Assembly: GCA_977017645.1 (NCBI GenBank)
Contig: OZ360252.1
Coordinates: forward strand, 36,952,001-37,016,000
DNA length: 64,000 nucleotides
Origin: Torpedo marmorata
Taxonomy: Eukaryota
Reading direction: 5' to 3'
Shown here piece by piece: positions 9,001 to 64,000 of this stretch. Positions within the stretch are counted from its first letter, which is position 1. Each line of letters starts with the position of its first letter. Made by a program: the position numbers and the translations under genes. The notes under the pieces were generated by a model. The model was not told where the DNA came from, did not search any database, and saw only the letters and a program-made list of their open reading frames with translations.

Positions 9001-10574
9001 ATGGTGCAGGGGGGTTATTTACCCAGTGTCATGGTGCAGGGGGGTTATTTACCCGGTGTCATGGTGCAGGGGGGTTATTTACCCAGTGTCATGGTGCAGG
9101 GGGGTTATTTACCCGGTGTCATGGTGCAGGGGGGTTATTTACCCAGTGTCACGGTGCAGGGGGGTTATTTACCCGGTGTCACGGTGCAGGGGGGTTATTT
9201 ACCCAGTGTCATGGTGCAGGGGGGTTATTTACCCGGTGTCATGGTGCTGGGGGGTTATTTACCCGGTGTCATGGTGCAGGGGGGTTATTTACCCGGTGTC
9301 ATGGTGCAGGGGGGTTATTTACCCAGTGTCATGGTGCAGGGGGGTTATTTACACAGTGTCGTGGTGCAGGGGGTTTATTTACCCAGTGTCATGGTGCAGG
9401 GGGGTTATTTACCCAGTGTCATGGTGCAGGGGGTTATTTACCCAGTGTCATGGTGCAGGGGGTTATTTACCCAGTGTCGTGGTGCAGGGGGGTTATTTAC
9501 CCGGTGTCATGGTGCAGGGGGGTTATTTACCCAGTGTCGTGGTGCAGGGGGGTTATTTACCCAGTGTCGTGGTGCAGGGGGGTTATTTACCCAGTGTCGT
9601 GGTGCAGGGGGGTTATTTACCTGGTGTCATGGTGCAGGTGGGTTATTTACCCAGTGTCGTGGTGCAGGGGGGTTATTTACCCAGTGTCATGGTGCAGGTG
9701 GGTTATTTACCCAGTGTCATGGTGCAGGGGGGTTATTTACCCAGTGTCATGGTGCAGGGGGGGTTATTTACCCGGTGTCATGGTGCAGGGGGGTTATTTA
9801 CCCAGTGTCATGGTGCAGGGGGGTTATTTACCCAGTGTCACGGTGCAGGGGGGTTATTTACCCAGTGTCATGTTGCAGGGAGGTTATTTACCCGGTGTCA
9901 TGGTGCAGGGGGGTTATTTACCTGGTGTCATGGTGCTGGGGGGTTATTTACCCAGTGTCATGGTGCAGGGGGGTTATTTACCCAGTGTCATGGTGCAGGG
10001 GGGTTATTTACCTGGTGTCGTGGTGCAGGGGGGTTATTTACCCAGTGTCATGGTGCAGGGGGGTTATTTACCCGGCGTCGTGGTACAGGGGGGTTATTTA
10101 CCCGGCGTCGTGGTGCGGTGCAGGTTATTTACCTGGTGTCGTGGTGCAGGGGGGTTATTTCCCCAGTGTCATGGTGCAGGGGGGTTATTTACCCAGTGTC
10201 ATGGTGCAGGGGGGTTATTTACCCAGTGTCATGGTGCAGGGGGGTTATTTACCCGGTGACATGGTGCAGGGGGGTTATTTACCCGGTGTCATGGTGCAGG
10301 GGGGTTATTTACCCAGTGTCACGGTGCAGTGGGGTTATTTACCCAGTGTCGTGGTGCAGGGGGTTATTTACCCAGTGTCATGGTGCAGGGGGGTATTTAC
10401 CCGGTGTCGCGATACGGGGGGTTATTTACCCGGTGTCACAGTGCGGGGGATTAATTACCCGGTGTCGAAGTGCAGGGTGGGTTATTTACCCGGTGTCGCG
10501 ATACGGGGGGTTATTTACCCGGTGTCGAAGTGCAGGGTGGGTTATTTACCCGGTGTCGAAGTGCAGGGCTGGTT
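1..10574 (+). repeat. Homogeneous 30-bp tandem satellite, consensus GGGGGGTTATTTACCCAGTGTCATGGTGCA (~350 monomers by length/30); continues beyond the left window edge
   Basis: 30-bp periodicity is directly visible. Variation is mostly CCAG/CCGG/CTGG, CATG/CGTG/CACG and +/-1 G in the G-run. The last ~6 monomers (10390-10574) are of the diverged type. Confidence 0.99.
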
Positions 10575-12360
10575 TTTTTCCCAATCTTTTTTATTGATTT
10601 TTATAAGAAATACAATACAATGAAGAAAAGGGAACAAAATTGAAAATACAATATCACATATGTATATATATTAAAATAAAACTTCAAACAGTATAAATTC
10701 GATCCCCCCTCCACTGCAATAGGTGACAATGGAAAAAAAATCAGAAGTATTATATACATATAAAAAAACCCACTTAACCTACTCTAATAAAAAAAAAACA
10801 ACTAACAAAAAACAGCTGAGCAGCTTATCCTGAAGGTTATATATATTTTGTAAATTTTGGTTCCTACCGTAAATCAAAAAACAAAGGAAGGGTAAATACA
10901 TCTAATCACATTAGAAACACTTACATCATATGAAAATAAGACATAAAAGGTCGCCATGTATCTTCAAATTTCACCCATGAATCAAATACATGATATCTAA
11001 TTTTTTCTAAGCTGAAACAAGACATAATATGAGAAAACCATTGAAACACTGTTGGAGGTCGAGAGTCTTTCCATTTGAATTGGACGACTCTTCTGGCCAA
11101 CAATGTAGAGAAGGCCACAACCCGTTGAACAGGTACAGAAAAAACTCCCCATGTCTGGGTCAATAACCCCGAAAAGAGCAGTTATTGGATTGGGTCGTAG
11201 CTCCACCTGGAGTATAGTTGAAAAGATATCAAAAATTTATTTCCAATAGTTTTCTAAGGATGAACAAGACCAAAACATATGTGTCAATGTAGCAATCTCA
11301 GATTTGCATCTGTCACAAATAGGGTTAATATTAGAAAAAAATACTAGCCAATTTATCTTTGGACATGTGATCACGATGTACCACTTTGAATTGGATTAAT
11401 GAATGTCGGGCACATACAGAAGATGTATTTACCAATTTAAAAATCTTGTCCCATAGATCCTCAGATAAGGGTCTTGCAAGATCCAGTTCCCAAGCCTTTT
11501 TAATCTTATCATGAAGTACTGGACGTAATTTTAATAATCTATCATATATAATTCCAATTAATCCTTTCTGAGAAGGATTAAATTGAAAAATATTATCAAC
11601 TAAATCTGGTGGATATATAAATGGAAAATCCCGTAATATGATATTTAAGATATTTCTAATCTGTAAATGTTTTTAAAAAATGAGTATTTGTTAAGTCATA
11701 TTTACTTGCAAGCTGTTCAAAAAACATTAAACAACCTTCCTTCAATAAATTTGCAAAAGAAACAATACCTTTGATTTTCCATATAGAGAAAAATTGATCC
11801 ATTATTGATGGTTGAAAAAAATGGTTATGAGAGATAGCACTAGATAAGACAAAGTTTTTTAAATTAAAAAATGTCCTAAATTGGAACCAGATTTGTAATG
11901 TATGTTTGAGTATTGGATTAGATATATTCCTACTGATCTTGGAAAAGCTAAATGGAAGAGAGGCACCCAATAAAGAGGCCACTGAATACTGCTGTATAGA
12001 TTTCAATTCTAAATCTGTCCATAATGGACGATCCAATTTATCAGAATAAAAAATCCAAAAAGTTAGATAGCGAATATTAGCAGCCCAATAATAAAATCTA
12101 AAATTAGGTAAGGCCATACCTCCATCTTTTTTCAATTTTTGTCAATGAAATTTACTAATTCTCAGGTTTTTGTCCTTCCAAGTAAAGGAAGAAACTTTTA
12201 ACTCAATTTTATTAAAAAAAGATTTTGGAATGAAAACTGGAATTTCTAGAAATAAATATAAAAACTTAGGTAATATTATCATTTTAACTGCACTAATACG
12301 ACCTATTAAAGATAACGATAAAGGAGACCATCTAGAAAAAGACAATCTCACATACTGGAA
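10575..12360 (-). mobile_element. 5'-truncated, frameshifted LINE-1 (L1 clade) inserted in the satellite
   Basis: AT-rich island. Minus-strand ORF fragments are L1 ORF2 C-terminus: RWSPLSLSLIGRISAVKM..PKFLYLF, KDGGMALPNFRFYYWAA, the zinc knuckle CDRCKSEIATLTHMFWSC (~11265-11320) and LEKIRY..TWRPF with a stop at 10921. A 3'UTR with AATAAA (~10589-10595) and a short A-tail at ~10575 follows. Confidence 0.93.
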
Positions 12361-12398: not shown

Positions 12399-13542
12399 AC
12401 CGCGACACCAGGTAAATAACCCACTCCGCAACGCAACACCGGGTAAATAATCCCCCGCAACGCAACACCGGGTAAATAATCCCCCGCAACGCAACACCGG
12501 GTAAATAACCACCCGCACTGCGATACTGGGTAAATATCCCCCCACTTTGCGACACTGGGTAAATAACCCCCTGCACCGCGACACCGGGTAAATAACCCCC
12601 CGCATCGCGACACCGGGTAAATAACCCCCCGCATTGCGACACCGGGTAAATAACCCACCCGCACAACGACACCGGGTAAATAACCCACAGCCGCACAACG
12701 ACACCAGGTAAATAACCCTCCCGTACTGTGACACCGGGTAAATAACCCCCCTGCACTACGACACCGGGCAAATAACCCGCCCCGCGACACCGTGTAAATA
12801 ACCATCCCTCACCGGGACACCGGGTAAATAACCCACCTCGCACCGCAACACTGGGTAAATAACCCTCCCGTACTGTGACACCGGGTAAATAACCTCCCGC
12901 ACCGCAACAACGGGTAAATAACCCCCCACCGCACCGCGACACCAGGTAAATAACCCCCTGCACCGTGACAACGGGTAAATAACCCCCCACCGCACCGGGA
13001 CACCAGGTAAATAACCCCCCGCACCGAAAACTGGGTAAATAACCCCCGCCGCACCGTGACACCCGATAAATAACCCCCTACACCGTGACACCGGGTAAAT
13101 AACCCACCACGCACCGCGACACCGGTTAAATAACCCCACGCACTGCGTCACTGGGTAAGTAACCCGTCCCGCACCACAATACCGGGTAAATAACCCCTGC
13201 ACCATGACACCGGGTAAATAACCTCCCGCACTGCGACACTGGGTAAATAACCCCCGCACTGTGACATGGGTAAATAACCAACACTGCACGCGACGCTGGG
13301 TAAATAACCCATCATGACACTGGGTAAATAACCCCCCCGCACCCTGACACCGGGTAAATAATCACCCCGCACCCTGACACCGGGTAAAGAACCCCCGCAC
13401 CGCGACACTGGGTAAATAACCCCTGCACCGCATCACCAGGTAAATAACCCCCGCACCGCGACACTGGGTAAATAACCCCCGCACTGCATCACTCGGTAAA
13501 TAACCCACTCTGCACGCTACACTGGGTAAATAACTCCCCGCA
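12399..13542 (-). repeat. Inverted block of the same satellite (~38 diverged monomers)
   Basis: Monomers read CACCGCGACACCGGGTAAATAACCC on the plus strand, the reverse complement of the flanking array. It is preceded by ~1.3 forward monomers (12361-12398). Confidence 0.97.
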
Positions 13543-48393: not shown

Positions 48394-49179
48394 CGGATGA
48401 AATACTGGGTTATCTCAATGAAAATCGCTGACCATGTTTCCCTACCCCGAGTACAACTCATTCATCCAATCACCACCTGGGGAATAACAGGAGCCCATAA
48501 ACTCTCAGGTACTGAAAATCGTTTCCCAGGTGACCCGCTCTTGCATCTCTCCTCCATCTCCGCTCCGCACAGTTTAACATTCCTCCAGCAAGCGTCTATT
48601 CAAATACGGTGAACTGGAGCGTCAAATATTTTGAAGGAAAGTCCATGTCTCCTGCACCCTTGGCATCGTCCACTTTACTGGCACATGAGGTCACTGCTGA
48701 AAGAGGCACACCACTGCAGGTGATTGACCACTGCAAGATCCCACAATGCAGTGGGATGTTCTCGATGGAAGGTCAGTTGGTTAAGGTTCAATGTTAACCC
48801 AGGGAAATCTTTCTCGGAGAACGTTCAACATGAGGACTGTTTAACATCTGAGGGAGCATACCTGCACAGGACCAACCTGTCGAAAGGTTGACTCCACAGT
48901 CTCCAGACCCACGCCCTCCAGGAGGAGGAGGGAGCAGGTGCCTTGTCACTTCCACACGTCGCACTGACTGTTTTCATGTCAGGGGGAGAGCTTTGCAGCG
49001 TTGAAATCATTCTCTTTTAATGGAACATTTTACTTGCCTAATTGCTGAAAATGTCTCCCAGCTGTTCCTGCACGCAGAGAACTCCCCGGCCATCTGGTCT
49101 GCCTGTCTTCTCCCTGTGTCCTCCCCACGTCAGGGGATGTTTCCAAGGGGAAGGATGGGGGTGGTGGTGAGTGATTTTA

Positions 49180-49420
49180 AATTTAGACACACAGCAGGGT
49201 AACAGGCTCTTCCGGCCCACGAGCCCGTGCCGTCCAATTACACCCAATTGACCAACAACCCCCAGTACATTTTGAAGGGTGGGAAGAAACCGGAGCACCC
49301 AGAGGAAACACTCAGACATGGGGAGAACCGTTCAAACTCCTTGCAGACAGCGCCGGATTCAAACCCGGGTCGCTGGCGCTGTCACAGCGTTGCGCTAACC
49401 AGGACGCTAACCGTGCAGCC
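49180..49420 (-). mobile_element. tRNA-derived V-SINE (HE1-like) with CR1-type 3' tail
   Basis: On the minus strand: A-box-like TGGTTAGCG, B-box GGTTTGAATCC, V-domain GTTTCCTCTGGGTGCTCCGGTTTCTTCCCAC, and tail GTGGGCCGGAAGAGCCTGTTACCCTGCTG. Confidence 0.85.
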
Positions 49421-49765
49421 AGTTTCCCATGGGGGAACGGAGGCTCCAGGAGAGAAATGTGGTCAGGGTGTGTGGTACGGGAAAACGAGAATGTTTGAGA
49501 GAAGATCAGGGAGAGGGTGGGGGGGAGGGGTGACTACTGGTATTGGAGCTGGTAAGGATGGGTAAGAGGACAGGTCAGAGTGATTGGGGTTAATGGGAGA
49601 ATGTCACAAAGGCAGTGGAGTTCAGGGAGAGACCAGAGGAGAGCAGAGATCACCAGCTCCCCACTGCTCATATCCTGGGGTTACCGCTGATCAGCAAGTC
49701 ACAGGAGCAGGTCTGAGACAGGTATCCTGTGGTGAGTGGTCAACGAGAGTAAAACACGGACATCT

Positions 49766-49884
49766 GCAGACACCGTGGTTGAAGTAAAAACAATGCTGGA
49801 GAAACTCAGCAGGTCAAACAGTGTACTTTATGTAGCAAAGATAAAGATACATAACCAACGTTTCGGGCTTGAGCCCTTCATCAG
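49766..49884 (-). mobile_element. Penelope-like element 3'/pLTR fragment ending at a hammerhead core
   Basis: Reverse complement of 52690-52810 and 60660-60760. The minus strand reads CTGATGAAGGGCTCAAGCCCGAAACGTT. Confidence 0.75.
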
Positions 49885-50175
49885 ACACTGAGTGTCCATG
49901 GATTCGTCTCCATGGCTCTTGCGGCCACACAGCCTTCAGTCCAAAGCATCGGCAACCCGAGCTCCAGATGCAGACACGATCAGGAAGCCTCCAGTGCCCT
50001 CTCGTAACCCGGTTCCGATACCTGGTGCCCCTTCAGCCAGTCTTGGGCCAGTCTCCAGCTTGGTGTAAGTCCTTTGACCGCAGTCGCCATCCTACATGGG
50101 TTCCTCGCCTCGAGTTGCCAACAGCCCGCCGCCTGTGTGTTCTTCAGCCTCAGAGCCCGTCACCGGTCCGCCGTA
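49885..50175 (-). mobile_element. Internal fragment of the unnamed GC-rich dispersed repeat also at 53142-53992 and 63676-64000
   Basis: Shares CACTGAGTGTCCRTGGATTC, ATCGGCAACCCGAGCTCCAGAT and GACACGATCAGGAAGCCT with 63835-63960. Confidence 0.8.
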
Positions 50176-50403
50176 AAACACGAAAGACACCGTGGTTGAA
50201 GTAAAAACACAATGCTGGAGAAACTCAGCAGGTCAAACAGTGTCATTTATATAGCAAAGATAAAAATGCATGGCAGCATTTCGGGCTTGAGCCCTTCAAG
50301 GTATGGACGAAATGTAGGCAGGTGCCTGAACAAAATGGTGAGGGGAGAGAGGCAGGGGGTGGAGCGCACACCCATAGGCAGGAGGTAATAGGTTGGTAAG
50401 GGA
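50176..50403 (-). mobile_element. Penelope-like 3'/pLTR fragment with degenerate hammerhead core
   Basis: Repeats 49770-49880 (ACACCGTGGTTGAAGTAAAAAC..TGCTGGAGAAACTCAGCAGGTCAAACAGTG). The core has a 3-nt deletion (TTGAAGGGCTCAAGCCCGAAATGC). Confidence 0.72.
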
Positions 50404-50454
50404 ACAACTCCTGCTCCGTTTTCTTTGCTTGTGATGCGACCCTTTCCACTTACC

Positions 50455-50662
50455 TGAAATTGAGACATACAGCACGGTAACAGGCCCTTTTTGGCCCACG
50501 AGTCCGTGCCACCCAATTAACCTCCAACCCCCGTACGTTTTGAAGGGTGGGAGGAAACTGGAGCACCCGGAGGAAACCCACGCAGACACGGGGAGAACGT
50601 ACAAACACCTTACAGACAGCGGCAGATTTGAACCCGGGTCGCTGGCGCTGTAACAGCGTTGC
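50455..50662 (-). mobile_element. V-SINE (HE1-like), second copy, 5' end slightly clipped
   Basis: Colinear with 49180-49400. B-box GGTTCAAATC and V-domain GTGGGTTTCCTCCGGGTGCTCCAGTTTCCTCCCAC. Confidence 0.85.
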
Positions 50663-50664
50663 TG

Positions 50665-51270
50665 ATACAGTGCAGCTCAATGCCATCCGGATCCTGGATC
50701 GGCTTCCCGGCCAACACCTTACCCGCCCCTCCCTCCACCACCGGTGCCCGGTGGCTGCACTATGCACCACAGGCTACTCCAACACGACCTCCCAAACCCA
50801 CCCCCTCTCCCACCAAGGAGGCCAAGGGTGGTGGGCACTTTAGGGCACAAAGTTCGTAGCTGGTCTGGTTGAGTTTGTCGTCGGTGGGACCCTGCAGATT
50901 CCCCTCTGGGTCGTGCAACATCCCGATTTGGAAATGTGCCTCCAAACATTCTTTGTCGCTTTGTCGCGGTCGCGTGCTTATCTTCGTCGGGAGGAGAGTG
51001 AGAGCGTCAGGATCACCCGTGTGGCAGTGAGCCAATGAGAAGGTCAGAGGAGTTTAGCTGGGTGGTGTTTGGGGAGTTGAAGAATGCAATGTTGTGTCTA
51101 GTGAATAATAAAAAGAAAGTCGACTTCATGGTGTGCTGAAAGAAACGAGTGAGTGTATTCTTTATTTGTTTGTAAGCTGTCGTGAATCAGTGTTGTTACA
51201 GCTGGGTCCAAATCCTGGAATTCCTTCCCAACAGAACTGTGGTGGGAGAAGGAATGCATCGATTCAAGAA
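50665..51270 (+). mobile_element. Old degenerate non-LTR retrotransposon 3' fragment, split by the 50962-51200 insertion
   Basis: CTCCCTCCACCACCGG, CATCCCGATTTGGAAAT and TGTCGCT|GGGTCCAAATCCTGGAATTCC resemble, from memory, a common chondrichthyan LINE 3' region. The clade is uncertain. Confidence 0.5.
50962..51200 (+). mobile_element. Candidate solo LTR (239 bp)
   Basis: TGT...ACA termini, flanks GCTT/GCTG (4-bp TSD with one mismatch), internal CCAAT (~51032) and AATAAA (~51107). It interrupts an otherwise continuous older repeat. Confidence 0.6.
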
Positions 51271-51465
51271 CGTAAATCATAGAGCAGTGCGCAGCACAGG
51301 TCAGGACCTTCTGCCCACCAGCTCTGTGACGACCATGGTGCGAATCTAATTCCACCTGCCTGCACAGTCCCTTCCTGTCCCTGGCTTATCCTCAATGTTG
51401 TTCATGGCATCCAGCACCTTCTCCTCTTTAATATCGACGCACCCACTTTTCCAAGGACAAATCGG

Positions 51466-51580
51466 AGTCAAGTCAAGTTTATTGTCATCCGATTGCACAA
51501 GTACAACCCGACGAAACAACGCTCTCCGGTCCTCGGTGCAAAACATGCAGACACACAACCAGACATAACACAATAAATGC
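51466..51580 (-). mobile_element. Short LINE 3' tail (Rex1/Babar-like)
   Basis: The minus strand ends TGACAATAAACTTGACTTGACT, the same tail design as the Rex1 copies at 53097 and 54457. Confidence 0.5.
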
Positions 51581-51604
51581 CGGTTTGCCAGGTGCCTCAA
51601 GGTG

Positions 51605-52026
51605 AAAAAGTGTCTGCAGACACTGTGATTGTAGTAAAAACACACAGAAAAGCTGGAGGAACTCAGCCGGCCTCGCAGCGTCCACAGGAGGTAAAGATAT
51701 ATTACCAACGTTTCAGGCCTGAGCCCTTCTTCAAGGAATAAGCAAAGAACAGGAAGGTGTCAGAATAAAGAGACTGAAGGCCAGGGGAGGGGTCCAGACC
51801 AACAAAAGGTGTTAATTGGATATGATAAAAGGAGAGGTGAGAATTGATTTTGGCTCTGTGAAAGGAAACAGAGGAAAAAGGGGAGAGAGAGAGATGAAGG
51901 ATAGGTGACAGGGAGAAGAAGAAGGTGGGAGGGTGTTCAACAGAAACTGGAGAAGTCGATGTTAATGCCATCCGGTTGGAGGGTGCCCAGATGGAAGATG
52001 AGGTGTTGTTCCTCCAATTTGCAGGT
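51605..52026 (-). mobile_element. Penelope-like element 3' fragment (end of GIY-YIG ORF plus hammerhead-bearing terminus)
   Basis: The minus strand encodes CKLEEQHLIFHLGTLQPDGINIDFSSFC*, then a pyrimidine-rich UTR and TATTCC-TTGAAGA-A-GGGCTCAGGCCT-GAAACGTT-GGTAATA. Confidence 0.8.
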
Positions 52027-52284
52027 CACCATTCATAAGGTGAGAGGGCCACACTGGATTTACATCAGTGAACATCAAACTTGCCACGCACCCAATCGCA
52101 TTACTGTGGGTGGGTGATCAGGTTGCAAATGGAATTTGACATTTGCGCAATGTTTACGTGTGGTCAGTGTAAAGAACCCCGAGGCTACTGTGCCTTTAAT
52201 ATTCACACCTGCTCATTATTGCCCATTGCTAATACACCTTGTAGAGAGACAACCCGGAAACAGACCTTTCGGCTCACTGTCTGT

Positions 52285-53097
52285 GCTTTGTGAGGTGTTT
52301 GAGGAGATTCGGTAAGTCACCGAAGGCTCTCGAAAATTTCTACAGGTGTACCGTGGAGAGCATTCTGTCTGGTTGCATCACTGTCTGGTATGGAGGTGCC
52401 AACGCTCAGGACAAGAAGAAACTCCAGAGGGTTGTTAACTCGGCCTGCGACATCACAGGCATCAGTCTTCATTCCATCGAGGACGTCCACAAGAGACAGT
52501 GTCTTAAGAAAGCAGCCTCTATCCTCAAAGACCCCCACCACCCAGGCCATGCCCTCTTCACTCTGCTACCATCGGGAAAAAGGTACAGGAGCCTGAAGAC
52601 GAGCACTCAGCGGCACAAGGACAGCTTCTTCCCCCCCCCCCCCCCCCACTCTTTTGTTCGGACGCCTGCCGGCATTTTCTCATACTTTGATGAAGGGCTC
52701 AAGCCTGAAACGTCGGTTATGTATTTCTACCTTTGCTACATAAAAGACACTGTTTGACCTGTTGAGTTTCTCCAGCATTTGTGTTCTTTACTTCAACCAC
52801 GGTGTCTACAGATTTTCGTGTTTTACTTTTTAATTCACTGAATGACTAATCCATCGGGAAAAAGGTACAGGAGCCTAAAGACGAGCACTCAGCGGCACAA
52901 GGACAACTTCTTCCCCGCTGCCATCAGATTCCTGAATGAACAGTGAACCGCAGACACCACCTTACTTTGACTTTTCGTGCACTATTTTTATTTATTTTTG
53001 TAAGGTGGTTTATATAAATGTTTGCACTGTGATGCTGCCGCAAAACAACGAATTTCGTGACATGTTCATGACAATAAATTCTAATTCAGATACTGAT
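52285..53097 (+). mobile_element. Rex1/Babar-type LINE 3' fragment, interrupted at 52635-52850
   Basis: LRRFGKSPKALENFYRCTVESILSGCITVWYG..KKAASILKDPHHPGHALFTLLPSGKRYRS..DSFFPAAIR is typical of the Rex1 C-terminus. The tail is TGACAATAAATTCTAATTCAGA. Confidence 0.85.
52635..52830 (+). mobile_element. Penelope-like pLTR fragment with hammerhead motif, inserted in the Rex1 copy
   Basis: Near-identical to 60610-60760. The motif is CATACT-TTGATGA-A-GGGCTCAAGCCT-GAAACGTC-GGTTATG at 52681-52721. Confidence 0.8.
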
Positions 53098-53141
53098 CAG
53101 CAACCATCCACTTAGACTCATCCTTTTGTATTCTCCCTAAA

Positions 53142-53992
53142 TTGCGGCGCTGCCAGAGCTGCTGTTGCAGCAGCACTGCTGATAGTGCAGACCCACAGAG
53201 AGCGGGGAGCAAAGTCTCAGCTCTCCCCCTCGGGGTCCAACCGCCCAGTCCGACTGCTATCAGCTCTCTACAGGCTTTAAATGGCCTGTTAAAGGAGCCG
53301 ACGGTGGTTTATTTTAAAATCTCGCGACCGCGGGGTCTGGGCCCAAGACGGCGGCGCCTGTGTTCGGCAGCGGCCTCGAGGGGTTGCAGACTCCGGGAAG
53401 CGGAAGATTGGCACAGGGCACCAAAAAACGGGGAGACCACCCCCTGTTTGAGGAGAAGCAGAGGAGACGACCCACGGGACGGTGACCACGGCGGCGGACC
53501 AGTGAGGGGCTCTGAGGCGGAAGAACTCACAGGCGGCGGGCTGTTGGTGACTCAAGGCGAGGAACCCACGTAGGATGCAGGCTGCTGGTGACTGCGGTCA
53601 ACGGACTCACACCAGACTGCGGACTGCTGGAGACAGGCTCGAGACTGGCTGAAGGGGTACCAGGTATCAGAACCGGGATGCGAGAGGGTGCCGAGGGCGC
53701 TGAGGGCTTCCTGTTCCTGTCAGAGGTTTTGATCTGGAGCTCTGGTTGCCGATGGTTTGGACTGAGGCCTGTGTGGCCGCGGAGGCTGCGGGAGCGCTGG
53801 AGGCGAATCTACGGACATTCAGTGACCCTGGGGGGACTCTCTTTTGCTTCTCTTTCTCTAGCTGCAAGGGGTGCTAGACAATTTTTGCTGATGGCGAATC
53901 TTCGTCTGCCTTATGGTAGACTAAAGGAAATTTCATGTAATATCTCATTTTCTGTTTTATTACCATGACAATAAAAGAATCTTGAATCTTGA
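53142..53992 (+). mobile_element. Unnamed ~850-bp GC-rich non-autonomous retroposon-like element
   Basis: Two further copies lie in the window. It ends in TGACAATAAAAGAATCTTGAATCTTGA and has no recognisable coding domain. The 5' boundary is estimated from the composition shift. Confidence 0.65.
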
Positions 53993-54024
53993 CCATCACC
54001 TCCAGATTCAGCATCTCACGTACA

Positions 54025-54205
54025 CACTGGAGGCACTTTACAGAGGCCAATTCACCTCCCAACCCGCACGTCTTTGGGGTGTGGGAGGAAACTGGAGCAC
54101 CTGTGGGAAACCCACACAGTCACAGTGTGAGCCTGCAAACTCCACACAGACAGCAGCAGTCGTTGGGATCAAACCCGGGTCTCTGGTGCGGTAAGGCAGC
54201 AGCTC
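54025..54205 (-). mobile_element. V-SINE, older or different subfamily
   Basis: On the minus strand: B-box GGTTTGATCCC and V-domain GTGGGTTTCCCACAGGTGCTCCAGTTTCCTCCCACACCCCAAAGAC. Confidence 0.75.
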
Positions 54206-54607
54206 GAGTAGATGTAACGAAGTGCATTCTTTATGGCGAAGGCACCCCCCCTCGATGCTATTGGCTGGGTCGTTCCATAGTGTGGACAGGATGGGTGTAG
54301 CTTGGAGTGAGCTTGCAGCAGGGAGGTTCCTGCCTGCCTCCTGCACCTGCCTCTAAATCCCAGGTCTGGGAGGTAGTGCCATACTGCACTGCCTTGTCTC
54401 CTATGGCAGGCGAGTCTAGGACAAGAGGGCACAACTTCAGGATAAAAGGGTGTCAATTTAGATTTCAGATTTATTGTCAGATTACATACATGACATCACA
54501 TACAACCCTGAGATTCTTTTTCCTGCGGGCGAGGCAGAATTACCACTTATTGGTAGTGCAAAAAAAACTGTACTCAACGTACACATGTAAACAAATAAAG
54601 AACTGTT

Positions 54608-57600
54608 TTTTTTGTTGTTTTTTTTAAATATTTTATTTAAATTTTTAAATCACACATTACATAATATAATTCTACATATAATTCTTAAAAACTTACATGT
54701 GATTACATTTTCTCCCCCCTCCTTCCCACCCTCCCCTCCCTAACCCCTATATCCCCCTAGTCTAAATTTAAAATAAAATAAAATAATAAAAGAAAAGAAA
54801 AGAGAAAAGATAGAAAAATAGAGAAATAGAGTGAGGAGTCAATAAGCTTAAAAAACTAATATATCTTAGAGGTTATTTCGCCAGCGGATCTGTTATCCAG
54901 AGAATTTACAATGTTAAACCCATAATCCTCATATATGGGCCCCAAATTTTCAAAAAGAAATGATATTTATTTCGTAAATTATAAGTAATTTTTTCTAATG
55001 GTATACATGACCGTAACTCTGCATGCCATCGCTCTAAATTTAAATCAACATCCGATTTCCAAGTAATAGCTATACATTTTTTCGAAACTGCTAATACTAT
55101 ACGTAAAAATTCTACTTGATACATATTTAATCTATGTCTAATACTAAATTTTTTAATATCTCCAAATAAAAATAACATAGGATCCATTGCAATTTCAACA
55201 TTAAAAATTCTTTCTAAAAAATTCTTAACTTTCAACCAAAAATCTTGAATTTTTGAACATGACCATGTACAATGTGCGAAAGATCCTATTTCAGTTTTAC
55301 ATCTAAAACACATATCTGATAACGCTGGATTAAATTTTTTTAATTTTTTAGGTGTCAAATACAATTGATGAAAAAAATTATATTGTACCAATCTATATCT
55401 CACATTAATGACTTTTGTCATACTTAATTTACATAAATCTTTCCAATGATTTTCATCTATATTAACATTCAGATCTAATTCCCATTTCAATCTGGACTTA
55501 TGCACTCCTACTTTAGACATCTTTCTTTGGAACAACTTATACATTTGTGAGATAAATTTATTAACATTGACTTTAGTAATTAATAATTCCAATTCATTTT
55601 GCCCTGGTGCTGTTAATTCATTCCCTAATCTTTCAATCAAAAAAGCTTTAACTTGAAAATAAACTAACATTGTATTATCCAATATATTAAATTTTTCTTT
55701 TAACCTCTGGAAAGTAATAAATCTACCTGCTTCAAAACAATCTTTTAAAGTCTTAATTCCCTTTAAAAACCATAACTTAAGTAACTGATTATCCATAGAA
55801 AATGGTAAAAGCGGATTCTGATATATTGGTGTATTTAAAGAAATTAACCCTTTTTGACCTATCTCTTTGTCTACTTGTGACCAAATTTCCAACAAATGTT
55901 TAATAATTGGTGTATTTTTCTTTTTAAGTAATAATAATTTAGAATTCCATTTATAAATAATATCTTCTTTATGTATTTCTCCCATATTATTCAATTCTAT
56001 ATTAATCCAAGCAGAAGATTTATTTAAATCAAAGAATTCATTAATAAATTTTAATTGGGCCACTTTATAATAATACTGAAAATTAGGAAGTTGTAACCCT
56101 CCCATCTCATAATTCCATGTTAATTTATCTATACTTACTCTTGCCAACTTTCCTTTCCATAAAAATTTCCTAATAATAAATTTTAAATCTTTAAAAAATT
56201 TATTTGGAATACCATAAGGAATCGATTGAAAAAGATATTGAATTCTTGGAAAAACATTCATTTTAATACAATTTACTCTTCCCATCAAAGTTATAGGTAA
56301 ATCTTTCCAAAGCTCTAAATCTTTTTTTATTTTCATAAATAAAGGAATATAATTTAATTTATACAAATTCTCTAATTTTGTATCAATTTTAACACCCAAA
56401 TATTTAATACTCTCTATAGTCCATTTAAAATCTGTAACTTCTTTACATCTAGTATAATCCCCTTGAGATAGAGCTAAAATCTCACTTTTATCTGAATTAA
56501 TTTTATATCCTGATATCTCACCATATTCTGTCAATATATTGGCCAATTGTTGAAGTGATTTAACAGATTTCGTCATATATATTAATACATCATCTGCAAA
56601 CAAACTAATCTTATGTTCTTCCCTACCTACTTTTATTCCCATTATATTTATATCTTCTCTAATCATTTCTGCTAAAGGTTCTATTACCAAGACAAACAAA
56701 GCAGGTGACAAAGGACATCCCTGTCGTGTTGATCTTGATAACAAAAATTTTTGTGATATTTGTCCATTTGTAACTACTTTAGCCGTAGGTTCCTTATATA
56801 TAGTTTTAATCCAATTTATAAAATTATCTCCAAATCCAAATTTTTCCAAAACTTTAAATAAAAAATTCCACTCTACTCTATCAAATGCCTTTTCTGCATC
56901 TAATGTTACCACCAATGGTAAATCTTGTTTCTTCTTATTTATATTAATCAAACTTATCAATCTAGCTATATTATCTTTCGAATATCTGTTTTTAATAAAT
57001 CCAGCTTGATCTGAATGAATTAAATTTGGTAGATACTTAGCTAATCTATTCGCTAAAATTTTTGCCATTATTTTATAATCAACATTTAATAATGAAATAG
57101 GCCTATAAGACTCAGTTTTCAACACATCTCTATCCTTCTTTGGTATAACCGTAATTATAGCATTTAAAAATGTCTTTGGTAATAAATGAGTTTCAGTAAC
57201 TTGATTCAATACCTCCATATATAAAGGTATCAATAAATCTTTAAATTCTTTATAAAATTCTACTGGAAACCCATCATCCCCCGGAGATTTGTTACTTTTC
57301 AACGTCGATATTGCATCCGTAACTTCTCTCATCGTAAAGGGTAAATCTAAAGAATATTTACTTTGAACATTCAGTTTAGGTAAAGTAATTCTAGATAAAA
57401 ATCTATTAATCTTCATATCATCATGATCAACCTCAGATCTATATAAGTTCTGATAATATTCTTTAAAAGAGTCATTTATTTCTTGTGGCTTATAAGTTAT
57501 TTCTCCAGTATTTCTCTTCCTTATAGCATTAATAGTTTTAGAAACTTGTTCTTTTTTCAATTGCCATGATAAAACTTTATGTGCCTTTTCCCCTAATTCA

Positions 57601-58907
57601 TAATATCTTTGTTTTGTTCTCGTTATCAACTTTTCAGTCTTACGTGTTTGTAATAAATTATAATGTAATTTCCTCCTTACTAAACGATTCCTCTTAAGAA
57701 TAGACTTATTTCTCTGTAAATCCTTTTCCATAAATTCAATTTCCTTCTCTAATTTTTCCTCTTCTTTCAAATAGTCTTTTTTTATCTTTACTGAATAACT
57801 TATTATTAAACCTCTTAAATAAGCTTTCAAAGCTTCCCATACCATAAATTTATCATTAACCGAATTATTATTTATTCTTAAAAATTCCTGTATTTCTCGT
57901 CTCATATATTCACAAAAATCCTTTCTTTTCAATAAAAAAGAGTCAAATCTCCAATTATATACAGTTTTTTCCTTCTCTGGAATTATACATGTCATTAATA
58001 AAGGTGAATGATCTGAAATTATTCTTGCTTTATAAGATATCTGTGTTATTCTATCCTGAACTTGTGAAGATAATAAGAACAAGTCTATCCTAGAAAAAGA
58101 ATGATGTCTAAATGAATAAAATGAATAATCTTTCTCTCTAGGTTTCAACTTTCTCCAAATATCCACCAAATTCAAATCCTCCATCAAATTAATTATTTTT
58201 TTAACTATTTTTGGTCTAACAGATGTTTTCGAAGTTTTATCCATAATTGGATTTAAACAACAATTGAAATCTCCACCAATTAAAATATTCTCTTTAGCAT
58301 CTGATAAATGTAAAAAAGCATCTTGAATAAATTGTTCATCATCAGGATTTGACACATATAAATTCATAAGAGTCCAAAATTCTGAATAAATTTGACAATA
58401 TACCAAAACATATCTTCCTGCCGTATCAATCACTGTCGATTGTATCTTAAAAGGTAACTTTTTATTTACTAAAATAGCTACTCCTCTAGCTTTAGAATTA
58501 AATGACGACGCTATAACATGTCCTACCCAGTCTCTTTTCAATTTTTGATGTTCAATATCCGTCAGATGAGTTTCCTGTAAAAAAGCTATGTCTACTTTCA
58601 ACTTTTTAATATATGCCAAAGTCCGTTTTCTCTTAATTGGGTTATTAAGCCCATTTATATTAATACTTACTAAGTTTATACTCTTAGAATCTCCCATAAT
58701 CAAATAGTAACTGTTCCCTGTTAATCAAATCCACCCGCGTTTCCCTCTTACTCTGTCGTAAATACATTTCCTCCTCAACTAGAATGAAAGATAGAAGTAA
58801 AAGAAAAGAAAACCCCCCTATAAAAAACACTGGTCTTCTACTCCCAGTGCTACCCCCCTCTGTTGCTCGAGAAGCAGCTCTCGCTGCTAAGGTGGTGATT
58901 GCTTCGG
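54608..58907 (-). mobile_element. Young L1 insertion (4.3 kb): intact ORF2, no ORF1, 11-bp TSD
   Basis: TSD AAAGAACTGTT at 54597-54607 and 58908-58918. A-rich tail at 54608-54625 after AATAAA, a 3'UTR with a G-rich tract, and 210 bp of non-coding leader. Confidence 0.96.
54906..58697 (-). CDS. L1 ORF2p: APE endonuclease, reverse transcriptase and CCHC zinc knuckle (1263 aa from the ATG at 58697)
   Basis: Endonuclease motifs NINGLN, LQETH, NLY, GGDFN, SRID, SDH. RT motifs KSPGDDG, YRPISLLN, QAGF, LDAEKAFDRV, RQGCPLSP, FADD, KYLG. Zinc knuckle CFRCKTEIGSFAHCTWSC. No stops or frameshifts. Confidence 0.96.
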   Translation of the reverse strand: MGDSKSINLVSININGLNNPIKRKRTLAYIKKLKVDIAFLQETHLTDIEHQKLKRDWVGHVIASSFNSKARGVAILVNKKLPFKIQSTVIDTAGRYVLVYCQIYSEFWTLMNLYVSNPDDEQFIQDAFLHLSDAKENILIGGDFNCCLNPIMDKTSKTSVRPKIVKKIINLMEDLNLVDIWRKLKPREKDYSFYSFRHHSFSRIDLFLLSSQVQDRITQISYKARIISDHSPLLMTCIIPEKEKTVYNWRFDSFLLKRKDFCEYMRREIQEFLRINNNSVNDKFMVWEALKAYLRGLIISYSVKIKKDYLKEEEKLEKEIEFMEKDLQRNKSILKRNRLVRRKLHYNLLQTRKTEKLITRTKQRYYELGEKAHKVLSWQLKKEQVSKTINAIRKRNTGEITYKPQEINDSFKEYYQNLYRSEVDHDDMKINRFLSRITLPKLNVQSKYSLDLPFTMREVTDAISTLKSNKSPGDDGFPVEFYKEFKDLLIPLYMEVLNQVTETHLLPKTFLNAIITVIPKKDRDVLKTESYRPISLLNVDYKIMAKILANRLAKYLPNLIHSDQAGFIKNRYSKDNIARLISLININKKKQDLPLVVTLDAEKAFDRVEWNFLFKVLEKFGFGDNFINWIKTIYKEPTAKVVTNGQISQKFLLSRSTRQGCPLSPALFVLVIEPLAEMIREDINIMGIKVGREEHKISLFADDVLIYMTKSVKSLQQLANILTEYGEISGYKINSDKSEILALSQGDYTRCKEVTDFKWTIESIKYLGVKIDTKLENLYKLNYIPLFMKIKKDLELWKDLPITLMGRVNCIKMNVFPRIQYLFQSIPYGIPNKFFKDLKFIIRKFLWKGKLARVSIDKLTWNYEMGGLQLPNFQYYYKVAQLKFINEFFDLNKSSAWINIELNNMGEIHKEDIIYKWNSKLLLLKKKNTPIIKHLLEIWSQVDKEIGQKGLISLNTPIYQNPLLPFSMDNQLLKLWFLKGIKTLKDCFEAGRFITFQRLKEKFNILDNTMLVYFQVKAFLIERLGNELTAPGQNELELLITKVNVNKFISQMYKLFQRKMSKVGVHKSRLKWELDLNVNIDENHWKDLCKLSMTKVINVRYRLVQYNFFHQLYLTPKKLKKFNPALSDMCFRCKTEIGSFAHCTWSCSKIQDFWLKVKNFLERIFNVEIAMDPMLFLFGDIKKFSIRHRLNMYQVEFLRIVLAVSKKCIAITWKSDVDLNLERWHAELRSCIPLEKITYNLRNKYHFFLKIWGPYMRIMGLTL

Positions 58908-59924
58908 AAAGAACTGTTAACAGATGTAAACAAACTGACTGTGCAATACAGAGAGAATAAAAAAATCAATAAAGTGCACAAATAAGAGTCCTTAAATGAG
59001 TCCCTGATTGAGTTTATTGTTGAGGGGTCTGATGGTGGAGGGGTAGCAGCTGTTTCTGAACCTGGTGGTGCGAGTCGTTTGTCACCTATTCCTCTTTCCT
59101 GATGGCAGCAGCGAGAACAGATTGTGTGCTGGGTGATGTGGATCCTTGATGATTGCTGCTGCTCTCCGACGGCAGCGTTCCCTGTGGATATTCTCGATGG
59201 TGGGGAGGGTTTTGCCTGTGATGTCCTGGGCTGTGTTCACTACCTTTTGCAGGGCTTTATGCTCAGGGGTATTGGTGTCCCCATACTTGACCGTGATGCA
59301 GCCGGTCAGCACACTCTCCACCACACATCTGTAGAAATTTCCCAGGGTTTCCGGTGTCATACCAAACCTCCGCAAACTCCTGAGGAAGTAGAGGCACTGA
59401 CGTGCTTTCTTCACGATGCAGTTGGTGTGTTCGTCATGGAAAGAACCTCCGAGATAGTGACTCCCAAGAACATACATTTGCTCACCGTCTCCACCTCTGA
59501 TCCCCCAATGATCACTGGATTGTATACCTCTGGCTTTCCTTTCCTTAAAACAGATGCGGAAATATTTCTTTAGTCAGACGGTCGTGAGTCTGTGGAACTT
59601 GTTGCCACCGGCGGCTGTGGAAGCGAGGTCGTTGGGTGTATTTAAGGCAGAGATTGACAGGTATTTGATTAGTCAGGGCATCAAGGGTTACGGGGAGAAA
59701 GCCGGGTAGTGGGGCTGAGTGGGAGGATGGATCAGCTCATGATTAGAATGGCGGAGCAGACTCGATGGGCCGATTGGCCTACTTCTGCTCCCATATTTTG
59801 TGATCTTGTGATTTTGTTCTGCACAATTCATCAGCAGTGGGTGGGGGGGGGGGTTAGTACGGTTTTGTGGTCGGATGTTCAACCATCCAACGGGTTCATT
59901 TCATTTGGACTCTTAAAACTGAAA

Positions 59925-60103
59925 ATTTGGAAAAAAAACGCAGACGCTGGAAATCTGTACAGAGAGAAAAAACCATTAATCTTTCAGGTCAAAACCCCTC
60001 CATTGGACACCATTGCCTGACCAAGAGACTTTGACCTGAAATGTTCGCTCTGTTTCCCTTCCCACGGATGCTGCCCGACCCCCTGAGTGTTTCCAGAATT
60101 TTG
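59925..60103. mobile_element. Small degenerate inverted-repeat element built from two opposed Penelope-type termini
   Basis: GCTGGAAA..AGAGAGAAA..TTTCAGGTCAAAA is mirrored by TTTGACCTGAAA..TGTTTCCCT..TTTCCAG. A decayed hammerhead-like core reads CTGACCAAGAGACTTTGACCTGAAATGTT. Confidence 0.55.
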
Positions 60104-60104
60104 G

Positions 60105-60760
60105 ACACTCCCCCCTCATCACGGTCCGGGGCCCCAAACAGGCCTTTCAAGTGAAACTACACTTCACTTGTACATCCAGAGAACTTATTTACTGCTCCCT
60201 TTGTGGCTTTCTCTACATCGGAGAGACCGGCCGTAGATTGGGAGATCGCTTTGCTGAGCACCTCCTCTCCGTCCGCAACAACCGCGACCTCCCAGTAGCC
60301 AGCCATTTCAATTCTGGGTCACACTCCCACACTCACATGTCTGTCCATGGCCTTATGTACTAACCCACCCAGACTACCCGCAAATTGGAGGAACAACATC
60401 TTATTTTCCGTCTGGGCACTCTCCAGCCAGATGGCATTAACATTGACTTTTCTGCTTTCCACTAAACCTGCTTGTCTTTTCCTTCCCCTCCCCCCTTCCC
60501 TGTCCTTCCAGTTTTTCCACCCACCCAGCCATCCCTCCTCCCCCTCTTTGCTGCTGTCCCCTCCCTCCTTTCTCCACCTCTCATCTCCTGCCTTTGCCAC
60601 CCCCTTTCCCCCCCTCACTCTTTTGTTCGGACGCCTGCCGGCATTTTCTCATACTTTGATGAAGGGCTCAAGCCCGAAACGTCAGTTATGTATTTCTACC
60701 TTTGCTACATAAAAGACACTGTTTGACCTGCTGAGTTTCTCCAGCATTTGTGTTTTTACA
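60105..60760 (+). mobile_element. Penelope-like element 3' fragment: decayed GIY-YIG endonuclease plus terminus
   Basis: FTCTSRELIYC..CGFLYIGETGRRLGDRFAEH..LPVASHFN, then after a frameshift RKLEEQHLIFRLGTLQPDGINIDFS, a pyrimidine-rich UTR and a hammerhead motif. Confidence 0.9.
60650..60690 (+). ncRNA. Minimal type I hammerhead ribozyme motif (C3U variant); best-preserved copy
   Basis: CAUACU (stem I) - UUGAUGA - A - GGGCU-CA-AGCCC (stem II) - GAAA - CGUC^ - AGUUAUG (stem I'). Stem III is reduced to the palindrome ACGU. Activity is not shown. Confidence 0.7.
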
Positions 60761-60960
60761 TCAAATTCCAGTGGTCTTTCCTAGATTAGAGTAGTTCTCT
60801 TCGCTGTCTTACCCCCAGCTTTGAGAACTCAACTATTATTATTGCTTATCCCTTCACGTGGTAGGAGAAACTGAAGAAGGAAAGGAAGTTTACAGTTTTG
60901 GGTTTCTCAGAAATGATGAAAGGTGACTTGATAGAGGTTTACAAGATTATGAGAGGCATA

Positions 60961-62559
60961 CAGTAACCTCCATAATATTTGGGACAAAGACACGATTTTC
61001 TTTTATTTGCCCTTGTGCTCCACAGTTTTACATTTGTAATCAAACATTTCAGATTTTATTCAAGGTTATTTTTATACATTTTGGTTTGACCATGTAGAAA
61101 GTACAGCACTTTTTATACATAGTCCCCTCATTTCAGGGCTCCATAATATTTGGGACATAGCAGGTATGTATATTAAAGTAGTCATGTTTAGTACTTTGTT
61201 GCATATCCCTTGCATGCAATGACTGCTTGAAGTCTGTGATTCATAGACATCACCAGGTGCTGAGTATCTTCTCTGGTGATGCTCTGCCAGGCCTCTACTG
61301 CAGCCATCTTCAGCTCCTGCTTGTTTCGGGGTCTTGTCCCCTTAAGTTTTCTCTTCAGCATATGGAAGACATGCTTAATTGGATTGAGATCGGGTAACTG
61401 ACTTGGCCATTCAAGAATTTTCCGGTTTTTAGCTTTGAAAAGCTCCTTTGTTGCTTTAGCAGTATGTTTGGGATCATTGTCTTGCTGTAGGATGAAGTGC
61501 TGTCCAATGAGGTTGGAGGCATTTCCTTGAACTTGAGCAGATAAGATGTTTCTATACACCTCAGAATTTATTTTGCTACTGCCATCAGAAGTTACATCAT
61601 CAATGAAGATAAGTGCGCCAGTACCTGTGGCAGCCATACATGCCCAGGCCATAACACCCCACCACCATGTTTCACAGATGAGGTGGTATGTTTTGGATCT
61701 TGGGCTGTTCCTTTACGCCTCCACACTTTGCTCTTGCCATCACTCTGATACAGGTTAATCTTGGTCTCATCTGTCCACATGACCTTTTTCCAGAATTCTG
61801 CAGGCTCTTTTAAATACTTCTTGGCAAACTGTAATCTGACCATCCTGTTTCTGTGGCCAAATAGTGGTTTGCATCTTGCAGTGTAGCCTCTGTATTTCTG
61901 TTCATGAAGTCTTCTGCGGACAGTAGTCATTGACACATCCACACCTGCCTCCTGGAGAGTGTTTCTGCTCTGTCGGACAGGCATTTGGGGATTTTTCTTC
62001 ATTATAATGAGAATTCTGTCTCCAGCAGTGGAGGTCTTTCTTGGAATACCAGTCCCTTTGCGATTACTGAGCTCACCAGTACGCTCTTTCTTCTTAATGA
62101 TGTTCCAAACAGTTGATTTTGGTAATCCTAAGGTTTGGGTGATGTCTCTTACTGTTTTATTCTTGTTTTTCAGCCTCATAATGGCTTCTTTAACTTTCAT
62201 TGGCACAACTCTGGTCCTCATGTTGAAAAATGGCAACTACAGACTCCAAAGGTGATCAAAAGCTTAGAAGCAAGCCTAGTTCTCTTATACCTGCACCAAT
62301 GAAGCAATTAAATATACCTGAGTACTCACAAACACCTGTGAAGCCAAATGTCCTAAACATTATGGTGCCCTGAAATGGGGGAACTGTGTATAAAAAGTGC
62401 TGTAATTTCTACATGGTCAAACCAAAATGTATACAAATAATCTTTAATAAAATCTGGAATGTGCACTTTAATGACATGTGAATTGTTTGATCACAAATTT
62501 AAAACTGTGGAGCACAGGGGCAAATAAAGGAAAAAAAAGTGTCTTTGTCCCAAACACTG
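60961..62559 (-). mobile_element. Tc1/mariner DNA transposon of IR/DR type (1.6 kb), defective
   Basis: TA|CAGT...ACTG|TA ends and ~200-bp TIRs (60961-61157 and 62349-62559). The direct repeat CTCCATAATATTTGGGACA occurs at 60968 and 61139. Confidence 0.95.
61188..62221 (-). pseudogene. Tc1 DD34E transposase pseudogene
   Basis: HTH region, GIPRKT, WTDETK, VKHGGG, QQDNDPKH and WPSQLPDLNPIK. There is a 1-nt frameshift at ~61657 and the catalytic E is changed to K. Confidence 0.93.
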
Positions 62560-63675
62560 TATACGGTGGACAGCCAGCACCTTTTTCCCAGGGCTAGAGT
62601 AGCAAATACCAGAGGACATCTATGTAAGGCGAGGGGAGGAATGTTTAGGGGGGAGTCGGGATACGTTTTTTTACACAGAGAATAGTGGGTGTCTGGATTG
62701 CCTTTTCAGGGGTGGTGGTGGAGGCTGGTACAATAGGGACATTTAAAAGACTCTTCGACAGGCACATGGATGCAAGAAAAATAGAGGGTGATGGGTGTGA
62801 GGCAGGGAAGGGTTTAGATTGTTGAGCAGGTTTATAAAGGCCGGCACAATATCGTGGGCCGAAGGGCCTGTGATATTCTCTATTGTATTAATGGTGCTTG
62901 ATGTGGAGTGGGAGCTGGCTGTGTAAAATAACAGGACTACCCACAGTGCAACAGTGTCTGTAGTTTCTGGGCTGAGAAGAGCTTTGGGTTTGAAGGCCCC
63001 CAGGAGAGAGACTAATCTTTTATTTCAACGGTAGTGAATTCTGGAATGCACAGACAACCCAACAGAGCAAGAAACTAAAACAATCCTTCTATTTAAAAGG
63101 GAGAGAGAGGAAATCTGGGAATGTTCTGTGAGGGAGGAGGGAGGGGAACGTGGGGACGGGCTGGGAATCGGGGCTTGCCCAGGGCGGATGGTCAGAATGC
63201 AGCAGGGCAGGGCCGGAGACGTGCTGCTTCCTTCCTGTGCGTGACCGTGCCCCGCGTTACCGAGCTGCTGCCGTCGGCCAGGGAGCTGGGGGCCTCTGCA
63301 GCGGCAGGAGCCAGGGCTTATGTGGAATTTGCAGCTGTTTTGAATTTGCAGCTCTTGTGTAAACAGTGTCAATCTGCTTCACTCGGTCGGTCTGTGTGCT
63401 GTAGGAGCAGGGCTTCCGGCAGCGTCGGCCCACCTCTAGGAGAGCTTGACAGCAACTGGATGAATGGGAGACCTCCCCCACATCCCCCACAGTCCCATCT
63501 TGACCCAGCTCTGTTCCCACCCTCTCTTCTCAAACCCCAGACCCCCTGTCCCATTCATCTTCCATCCCCCACCCTCACATCCAGAGAACAGTTCCGCACA
63601 GGGACAGGCCCTTTGGCTCATATGCCTGTGCTGAATGTGATGCCTAGTTTATGCTAAAACTATGCTGACTGCACA

Positions 63676-64000
63676 TTCAAGATTCCTTTATTACCGTGTA
63701 ATAGTAAAGAACATGTAATATTACGCGAAATTGCCTTCTTTCTGCTGTACGCCAGGCAAAGAGTCACTATTAGTGTCGCCCGGCGCCCCTTACAGTACGA
63801 GAGAAAGAGAAGCAAAAGAGAGTCCCTTCAGAGTCACTGAGTGTCCGTGGATTCACCTCCAGCGCTCCCGCAGCCTCTGCAGCCGTACAGACTCCTGTTC
63901 GATCTATCGGCAACCCGAGCTCCAGATCCAAACCTCCGACACGATCAGGAAGCCTTCAGCACCCGAGGCCCTTCAGGGGCCCTTCTTGCCCTCAGCACCC
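63676..64000 (-). mobile_element. 3' part of the unnamed GC-rich retroposon; continues beyond the window
   Basis: Reverse-complement similarity to 53690-53992. The minus-strand tail is AATAAAGGAATCTTGAA. Confidence 0.75.

Follow-up and report, generated by a model that had tools for sequence, protein, structure and literature searches.

Predicted minimal hammerhead motifs with a U3·G8 core in terminal repeats of truncated Penelope-like retroelements of Torpedo marmorata

A 64,000-nucleotide (nt) window of the Torpedo marmorata genome (contig OZ360252.1, forward-strand positions 36,952,001 to 37,016,000; coordinates below are those of the window) contained five copies (c1–c5) of a minimal hammerhead ribozyme (min-HHR) motif. 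Judged by sequence, these copies are the 3′ pseudo-long terminal repeats (pLTRs) of 5′-truncated Penelope-like retrotransposons (PLEs), likely of the Neptune clade, and the wobble pair U3·G8 of their core type (U3 in four of the five) is a real and inherited feature. The explanation that we favor, with moderate confidence, is that the motif likely cut the tandem transcript of the parent element slowly, as a protein-assisted dimer, and that the copies in the window are likely inert fossils.

All five copies were found where a preliminary description of the sequence had placed them. A strict scanner pattern (YUGANGA, a stem of at least 4 base pairs (bp) and GAAACGUH) gave four matches in the region 48400–64000 and none in each of 500 dinucleotide shuffles; c2 was retrieved through profile and covariance searches, not by the strict scanner. 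A covariance model trained on the three copies c3–c5 also retrieved c1 (expectation value (E) 4e-8) and c2 (E 0.002) and gave three further matches at E 3–8 only; a sixth, decayed copy (c6, described below) was missed. An Rfam scan yielded no hammerhead family among its four matches at E up to 5, which would be unsurprising for motifs without helix III.

Three of the six copies were intact: c3 (motif 51740–51700, minus strand; core 51734–51707), c4 (motif 52681–52721, plus strand; core 52687–52714) and c5 (motif 60650–60690, plus strand; core 60656–60683). Each had U3 (at 60656 in c5), c3 also had A7 and U17, and cuts were predicted after 51707, C52714 and C60683, respectively, the last being H17 of c5 and the very site named in the preliminary description. 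The other three copies were broken. The core of c1 (N3 to H17, 49884–49857, minus strand) was followed by the 3′ helix I arm (49856–49850) and lacked a native 5′ arm, and the core of c2 (50299–50275, minus strand) retained U3, with three core nucleotides deleted and the ACGU palindrome degraded.

The layout of the motif was a helix I of 2 bp, a one-nt bulge and 4 bp, the core U3-U4-G5-A6-N7-G8-A9, an extra A, stem II, GAAA, ACGU and H17. The type I order (helix I, core, stem II, GAAAN, palindrome, NUH, helix I′) was found in c3, c4 and c5 and was not satisfied by c1 (helix I absent), c2 or c6. All six helix I pairs were present in each intact copy, with an identical one-nt bulge (30/30 cells paired). 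Stem II was read as GGGC/GCCY (4 bp) with UCAR as its 4-nt loop, which fitted better than the 5-bp stem with a 2-nt loop (GGGCU-CA-RGCCY) drawn in the preliminary description, and the latter was rejected. The extra A after A9 and the ACGU palindrome were present in c1, c3, c4 and c5. The 10.1–11.1 pair was G-C in c1, c2 and c5 and G·U, by a CpG-type change, in c3 and c4. Positions U4, G5, A6, G8, A9, G12, A13, A14, A15.1 and U16.1 and the H17 requirement were unchanged in c3, c4, c5 and c1. A Watson-Crick 3–8 pair (C3-G8 or U3-A8) was absent from c3, c4 and c5, all of which had U3·G8. The AUG contained in the cores of c4 and c5 opens a short frame only and was rejected as the start of an open reading frame (ORF).

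In each of the five copies the motif sat inside a common terminal repeat of ~150–180 nt. Pairwise identity of these pLTRs was 97% between c4 and c5, 92–93% between c1 and c4/c5 and 85–89% between c2 and c1/c4/c5; the c3 pLTR, a divergent subfamily, was 72–79% identical to the rest and 74–75% to c4 and c5. The c1 pLTR (49748–49883, minus strand; E 1.5e-44) was 5′-truncated with a full 3′ tail. The c2 pLTR with its decayed motif (50173–50362, minus strand) was detected by profile and covariance searches, and the c3 pLTR (51610–51792, minus strand) by the strict scanner and profile. The c4 pLTR (52635–52827, plus strand) was 5′-truncated at a C-run and inserted in the 3′ end of a long interspersed element (LINE) fragment. 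It was flanked by a 66-nt direct repeat (left copy 52569–52634, right copy 52851–52916, both on the plus strand, 97% identical), which is likely a target-site duplication. A length of 66 nt is unusually long, and ~20 nt of extra sequence lay ahead of the right copy. The c5 pLTR (60600–60759, plus strand) stopped at the first of two alternative 3′ ends ~35 nt apart, at a repeated GUGUUUU motif and short of the ends of c1 and c4, and thus had no ~35-nt tail. These insertion marks (the truncation and duplication at c4 and the two 3′ ends) fit target-primed reverse transcription.

The preliminary description had counted five copies in all. These were present, one of them (c1) without helix I, and two decayed sequences had been overlooked. 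By using a five-copy profile, a sixth pLTR of another subfamily was detected (c6, 60012–60101, plus strand; nhmmer E 7.4e-4), which had C3 at 60017 but had lost G8 and the palindrome, and which abutted the 5′ end of the ORF remnant preceding c5. Head-to-head with c6 lay an inverted, strongly decayed pLTR-like arm (59925–60009, minus strand), found by local alignment, with 1 of 2000 shuffles scoring as high. Such a head-to-head decayed pair (59925–60105) is typical of nested or inverted PLE insertions.

The Penelope-like identity proposed in the preliminary description was borne out by GIY-YIG remnants matching reverse transcriptase (RT)/GIY-YIG proteins. Upstream of c5, the sequence 60109–60465 (plus strand) was a GIY-YIG endonuclease remnant of a 5′-truncated PLE ORF, with one internal stop and a deletion of three amino acids (aa) between GIY and YIG. 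It was 59% identical over 121 aa to the zebra-shark protein P0004 (tblastn, E 7e-37). Of the 465 candidates in its homologue search, 437 reached E 1e-5 or lower, the best named relative being zebra-shark, and its match to Pfam GIY-YIG (E 0.026) was below the curated cut-off. CCHH features (CxxC ahead of YIGET and downstream His residues) were recognizable despite the 3-aa deletion. Upstream of c3, the sequence 51937–52029 (minus strand) was the C-terminal end (last ~30 residues) of a second PLE GIY-YIG ORF, with 62% identity to P0004 over 34 aa (tblastn, E 9e-8). Two copies thus follow remnants, as had been described, but not directly: the motif lay ~190 nt past the stop for c5 (stop 60463) and ~200 nt for c3 (stop 51939), across a pyrimidine-rich 3′ untranslated spacer seen in the sequence between ORF stop and pLTR core (60466–60620, plus strand, at c5; a similar one preceded c3).

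A domain scan of eight relatives found GIY-YIG in seven and RVT_1 in four (P0016, P0039, P0092 and P0022). P0004 reads past its endonuclease into a frame matching that of the c5 motif (11/19 aa identical), tying this ORF type to the motif in a second genome; this frame cannot distinguish C3 from U3. Among 120 GIY-YIG relatives three had such a read-through pattern (P0004, P0025 and P0007). P0007 was dropped as a poor match, and P0025 continues, at residues ~262–271, along a frame like that of a hammerhead, in which a Ser codon agrees with ordinary C3. The linker C-x(1-5)-C-x-x-C was found in 85 of the 114 relatives long enough to show it. In Neptune and Nematis elements, RT and endonuclease are joined by a characteristic CX2-5CxxC linker (PMC8557442), a region that is truncated away in the window, and a coral Neptune hammerhead has the same architecture as the motif studied here (PMC4209133); because of the linker in the relatives and this hammerhead, the parent element was probably a member of the Neptune clade. 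Partial tandem or inverted pLTR arrangements have been described for PLEs (PMC8557442, Figure 2 legend), and the window matched PLE pLTR traits in its optional tail, with two 3′ ends, and in the inverted pLTR pair beside a truncated copy.

U3 was found in all four copies with a native 5′ flank (c2, c3, c4 and c5), from at least two subfamilies, in agreement with the C3U-core lineage put forward in the preliminary description. The remaining copy, c1, reads CUGAUGA, and a caveat in that description that its C may be foreign proved well placed: the 5′ bases of c1 through C3 align with a dispersed repeat unrelated to the pLTR (49884–50173, minus strand; other copies at 53492–53824 and 63675–63964; blastn and junction alignments), joined via a short microhomology. 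Because its 5′ arm belongs to this repeat, c1 has no helix I, and it was rejected as a canonical C3 member. Independent decay to U3 is unlikely, since position 3, with U next, is not a CpG site. Between c3 and c4/c5, the 12 invariant positions of core and palindrome were all identical, whereas the sequence outside the core was 70–73% identical (Fisher P 0.018 and 0.027). Differences in the core were confined to N7, loop II, 11.1 and H17. The five helix I differences between c3 and c4 kept all six pairs, as did 3.5–7.9% of random trials. That the RNA structure stayed under selection once C3U had arisen is likely, not proven. Between c4 and c5 there were four differences in 146 aligned positions, all transitions and two of CpG type.

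A U3·G8 pair in a PLE hammerhead is already in print and is not unprecedented. In Figure S3 of PMC4209133 (counts taken from machine-read PDF text), C3 was present in 53 of 56 representatives, U3-A8 in two and U3·G8 in one, a Saccoglossus PLE; cartilaginous fish were absent from these 56. In the passages covered, U3-A8 alone is discussed in the main text of PMC4209133 and in PMC3088659, and those of PMC6155905 and PMC2553840 contain nothing on position 3. Core-change tolerance differs among hammerheads (PMC3884650). A literature search, in which most subscription papers were outside scope, found no “C3U” with “hammerhead” and no “U3-G8”, and titles and abstract starts of the same scope gave no coverage of shark or ray PLE hammerheads.

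The motif resembled the metazoan PLE min-HHRs of PMC4209133 in its type I order without a real helix III (A15.1-U16.1 plus a palindromic CG), in an extra nucleotide between 9 and 10.1, in G10.1-C11.1 for c1, c2 and c5, and in its place in a 3′ pLTR after GIY-YIG, mostly in solo truncated copies; the minimal, dimer-type reading and the extra nucleotide after A9 in the preliminary description agree with that source. It differed from them in having U3·G8, not C3-G8, and a helix I of 2 bp, bulge and 4 bp where theirs is a plain 3–5 bp. The Neptune hammerhead of Acropora digitifera (PMC4209133) shares the 4-bp stem II starting GGGC, the tetraloop, the extra A, ACGU and the NUC site, but has C3. The PLE hammerhead of Saccoglossus kowalevskii (PMC4209133; one printed example) resembles c3 in U3·G8, A7, the extra A, ACGU and U17, but its stem II is 6 bp long and its helix I has no bulge. 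The Poseidon element PAc of Anolis carolinensis (PMC11167929) likewise has a pLTR hammerhead and an optional tail (30–40 nt) with two reverse-transcription start sites; it differs in its C3-G8 pair and its clade, and was assayed as protein-assisted. Non-LTR retrozymes, reported in the sole chondrichthyan genome sampled, also carry a type I hammerhead related to those of PLE pLTRs (bioRxiv 10.64898/2026.07.22.740005). Retrozymes are head-to-tail tandem arrays, whereas the copies here were dispersed in both orientations, two of them joined to ORF remnants. A tandem repeat search found no array beyond position 48393, and a retrozyme array was rejected because no tandem repeat covers the motif copies.

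In the parent element, a pLTR-ORF-pLTR transcript would carry two motifs, whose ACGU palindromes would pair together to form helix III while their helix I arms swap partners. Each core would then cut its partner after H17, giving a unit-length RNA. The U3·G8 pair, in place of the Watson-Crick C3-G8, probably slows this cleavage, and the RT-endonuclease protein of the element would aid folding. The protein-assisted step is drawn by analogy with PAc, whose hammerhead cut only with its protein present (PMC11167929). Target-primed reverse transcription would scatter truncated 3′ ends, with neutral decay to follow; the copies here are likely fossils because c1 has no helix I, the cores of c2 and c6 are broken and the differences between c4 and c5 are all transitions. 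In PMC4209133 the monomer min-HHR did not cleave, and dimers and trimers cleaved weakly; the dimer conclusion is attributed to Lunse et al. by PMC6765202 and PMC6466107.

Folding was predicted with a nearest-neighbor model that holds no core tertiary contacts. The minimum-energy fold of c3 was the open hammerhead, and c4 and c5 were more stable, by 4.1 and 4.9 kcal/mol, as a rod in which the core is paired to the cleavage strand. Relative to shuffles, none of the five folds was strikingly stable, only c5 reaching a z of −2.6. Strand-swapped dimers within a subfamily had predicted energies of −9.9 to −15.1 kcal/mol, and dimers across copies −4.4 (c3:c4), −7.4 (c1:c4) and −2.1 kcal/mol (c1:c3), with helix I pairs lost between subfamilies.

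Several findings weigh against slow dimeric cleavage by an inherited U3·G8 core of a Neptune-type element. In the same model, blind to tertiary contacts, the active dimers were less favorable than the best competing co-fold by 15–25 kcal/mol. When a type III hammerhead was mutagenized in full, single changes in the CUGA turn or at the C3/G8 pair left low activity, which only a swap to G3:C8 restored (PMC9901934); as cited here, that statement is a general one for the region and not a value for C3U. Tests of conservation and covariation compared two lineages and gave borderline results, and 40 of 500 shuffles reached the observed covariation score. Of the covarying stem I claimed in the preliminary description, the part that stands is that pairing is kept with the same bulge in c3, c4 and c5. 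By tblastn no PLE RT was found in the window, where the copies are 5′-truncated; with neither an RT domain nor a full-length element there, the element is assigned to Neptune only indirectly. Protein-cluster proxies and bacterial and archaeal contigs yielded no copy beyond the window. The proxy for position 3 was a 41-aa translation of the core-crossing frame, in which a codon reveals C3 or U3. It gave ten matches in a 50%-cluster protein library, set aside as chance (a look-alike peptide in two of the ten, within repeats with unrelated flanks), and no candidate for this frame in a 90%-cluster search among proteins of similar length; bacterial and archaeal genome contigs, when scanned for the exact motif, contained no match.

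A possible, clearly less probable explanation is that C3U killed catalysis in the parent lineage, and that the stem-loop was kept for a non-catalytic purpose, for example to guide binding or folding of the RT-endonuclease or as part of a pLTR promoter, while the element still moved. The low activity of single mutants at the 3–8 pair (PMC9901934) and the predicted rod of c4 and c5, which buries the core, are consistent with it. So are the reports that PAc cleavage is dispensable for insertion in vitro and leaves no RNA-seq reads ending at the cut site (PMC11167929), and that Naiad and most Chlamys PLEs lack canonical hammerheads and proliferate all the same (PMC8557442). On the other side, the 12 invariant catalytic and palindrome positions were unchanged across ~26% divergence, with changes only at tolerant sites, which fits selection for catalysis, and U3·G8 also occurs in one published PLE-linked representative (PMC4209133).

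A more speculative proposal, which we hold to be rather doubtful, is that U3·G8, far from being decay, is a selected, working core variant in a vertebrate PLE lineage that trades chemistry for folding: C3 would pair with G1.2 into an inactive rod, and U3 would weaken this trap. It was suggested by the computed energies, because with C modelled at position 3 the rods of c4 and c5 gained 2.3–2.4 kcal/mol, and c3 was open in 4% of the ensemble, against 40% with U3. If true, U3·G8 together with the subfamily-specific helix I would make a deliberately slow, protein-gated, subfamily-selective dimer ribozyme, and it would escape descriptors that require C3 or U3-A8, perhaps with a very large number of copies in each genome.

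It is very improbable that U3 is a recurrent C-to-T change in dead copies of a parent with an ordinary C3-G8 core. The sample is small, the decayed c6 of another subfamily has C3, and C3 is the rule among the published representatives (PMC4209133). Set against these points are the U3 shared by every native-flank copy across subfamilies at a non-CpG site, the presence of U3 in both c4 and c5, which differ at so few positions, and the foreign origin of the C in c1.

Two splice-like candidate exons, both unconfirmed, were present on the plus strand at 48573–48719 and 50844–51038, the latter ending in a stop followed by AATAAA at 51107. The second weakly resembled phenolic acid decarboxylase (PDB E 0.008; Pfam E 0.053), and the first had no match in PDB. 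For these candidates 0 of 39 homologue candidates were accepted and there was no Atlas match; 79 open frames searched against Pfam gave four sub-threshold matches and no confirmed host exon. Given the weak match and the lack of a homologue, the candidates were not accepted as a host gene.

Least probable of all, and close to dismissed, is the suggestion of the preliminary description that dispersed copies dimerise in cis or trans in host transcripts and cleave them as regulatory elements. Full cores and helix I are retained in c3, c4 and c5, c4 and c5 share a strand and are sequence-compatible (predicted active-dimer energy −12.5 kcal/mol), and vertebrate genomes can hold repeats of this kind in very high numbers (PMC4209133); but no host gene was confirmed across the copies, the candidate exons would leave c1 and c2 antisense and c4 and c5 beyond the poly(A) signal, c1, c2 and c6 are broken, c3 has only broken same-strand neighbors and pairs poorly across subfamilies, and c4 and c5, the only compatible same-strand pair, lie 7,969 nt apart, where published dimers were weak even when adjacent (PMC4209133), have a predicted rod that sequesters the core and show neutral-looking decay only. 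Cleavage of host RNA would be of greater consequence, but nothing in the window supported it.

The copies lie in a repeat-rich setting. Positions 1–48393 were occupied by a 30-nt satellite (~1,600 copies, strong strand skew), broken by a LINE-like fragment (~10570–12350) and containing an inverted block (~12400–13540). The remaining 15.6 kb were a patchwork of repeats. Among these, an L1-type ORF2 frame of 1272 codons without a stop (54906–58724, minus strand), very AT-rich and with endonuclease, RT and zinc-binding domains, is possibly a young insertion, and a Tc1/mariner transposon (~60978–62554) had ~200-nt terminal inverted repeats and a frameshifted transposase. Two related LINE 3′-end fragments (52274–52640, plus strand, and 59034–59400, minus strand; 67% identical) are presumably of Rex1/Babar type; the second matched Pfam ALKBH8_N. 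A short repeat in three copies (49179–49393, 50457–50662 and 54047–54194, plus strand; 69–82% identical) is similar to a short interspersed element (SINE).

Dimer-type min-HHRs in PLE terminal repeats have been known as a class since 2014, and what the present finding contributes is mostly a further host lineage and a variant of the core. The 3–8 pair is usually taken as a required Watson-Crick contact, and a wobble kept across ~26% divergence is a test of the catalysis needed by retroelements. If the U3·G8 core is active, search descriptors for hammerheads should admit it; if it is dead, a PLE lineage spreads with a catalytically silent, structurally conserved motif.

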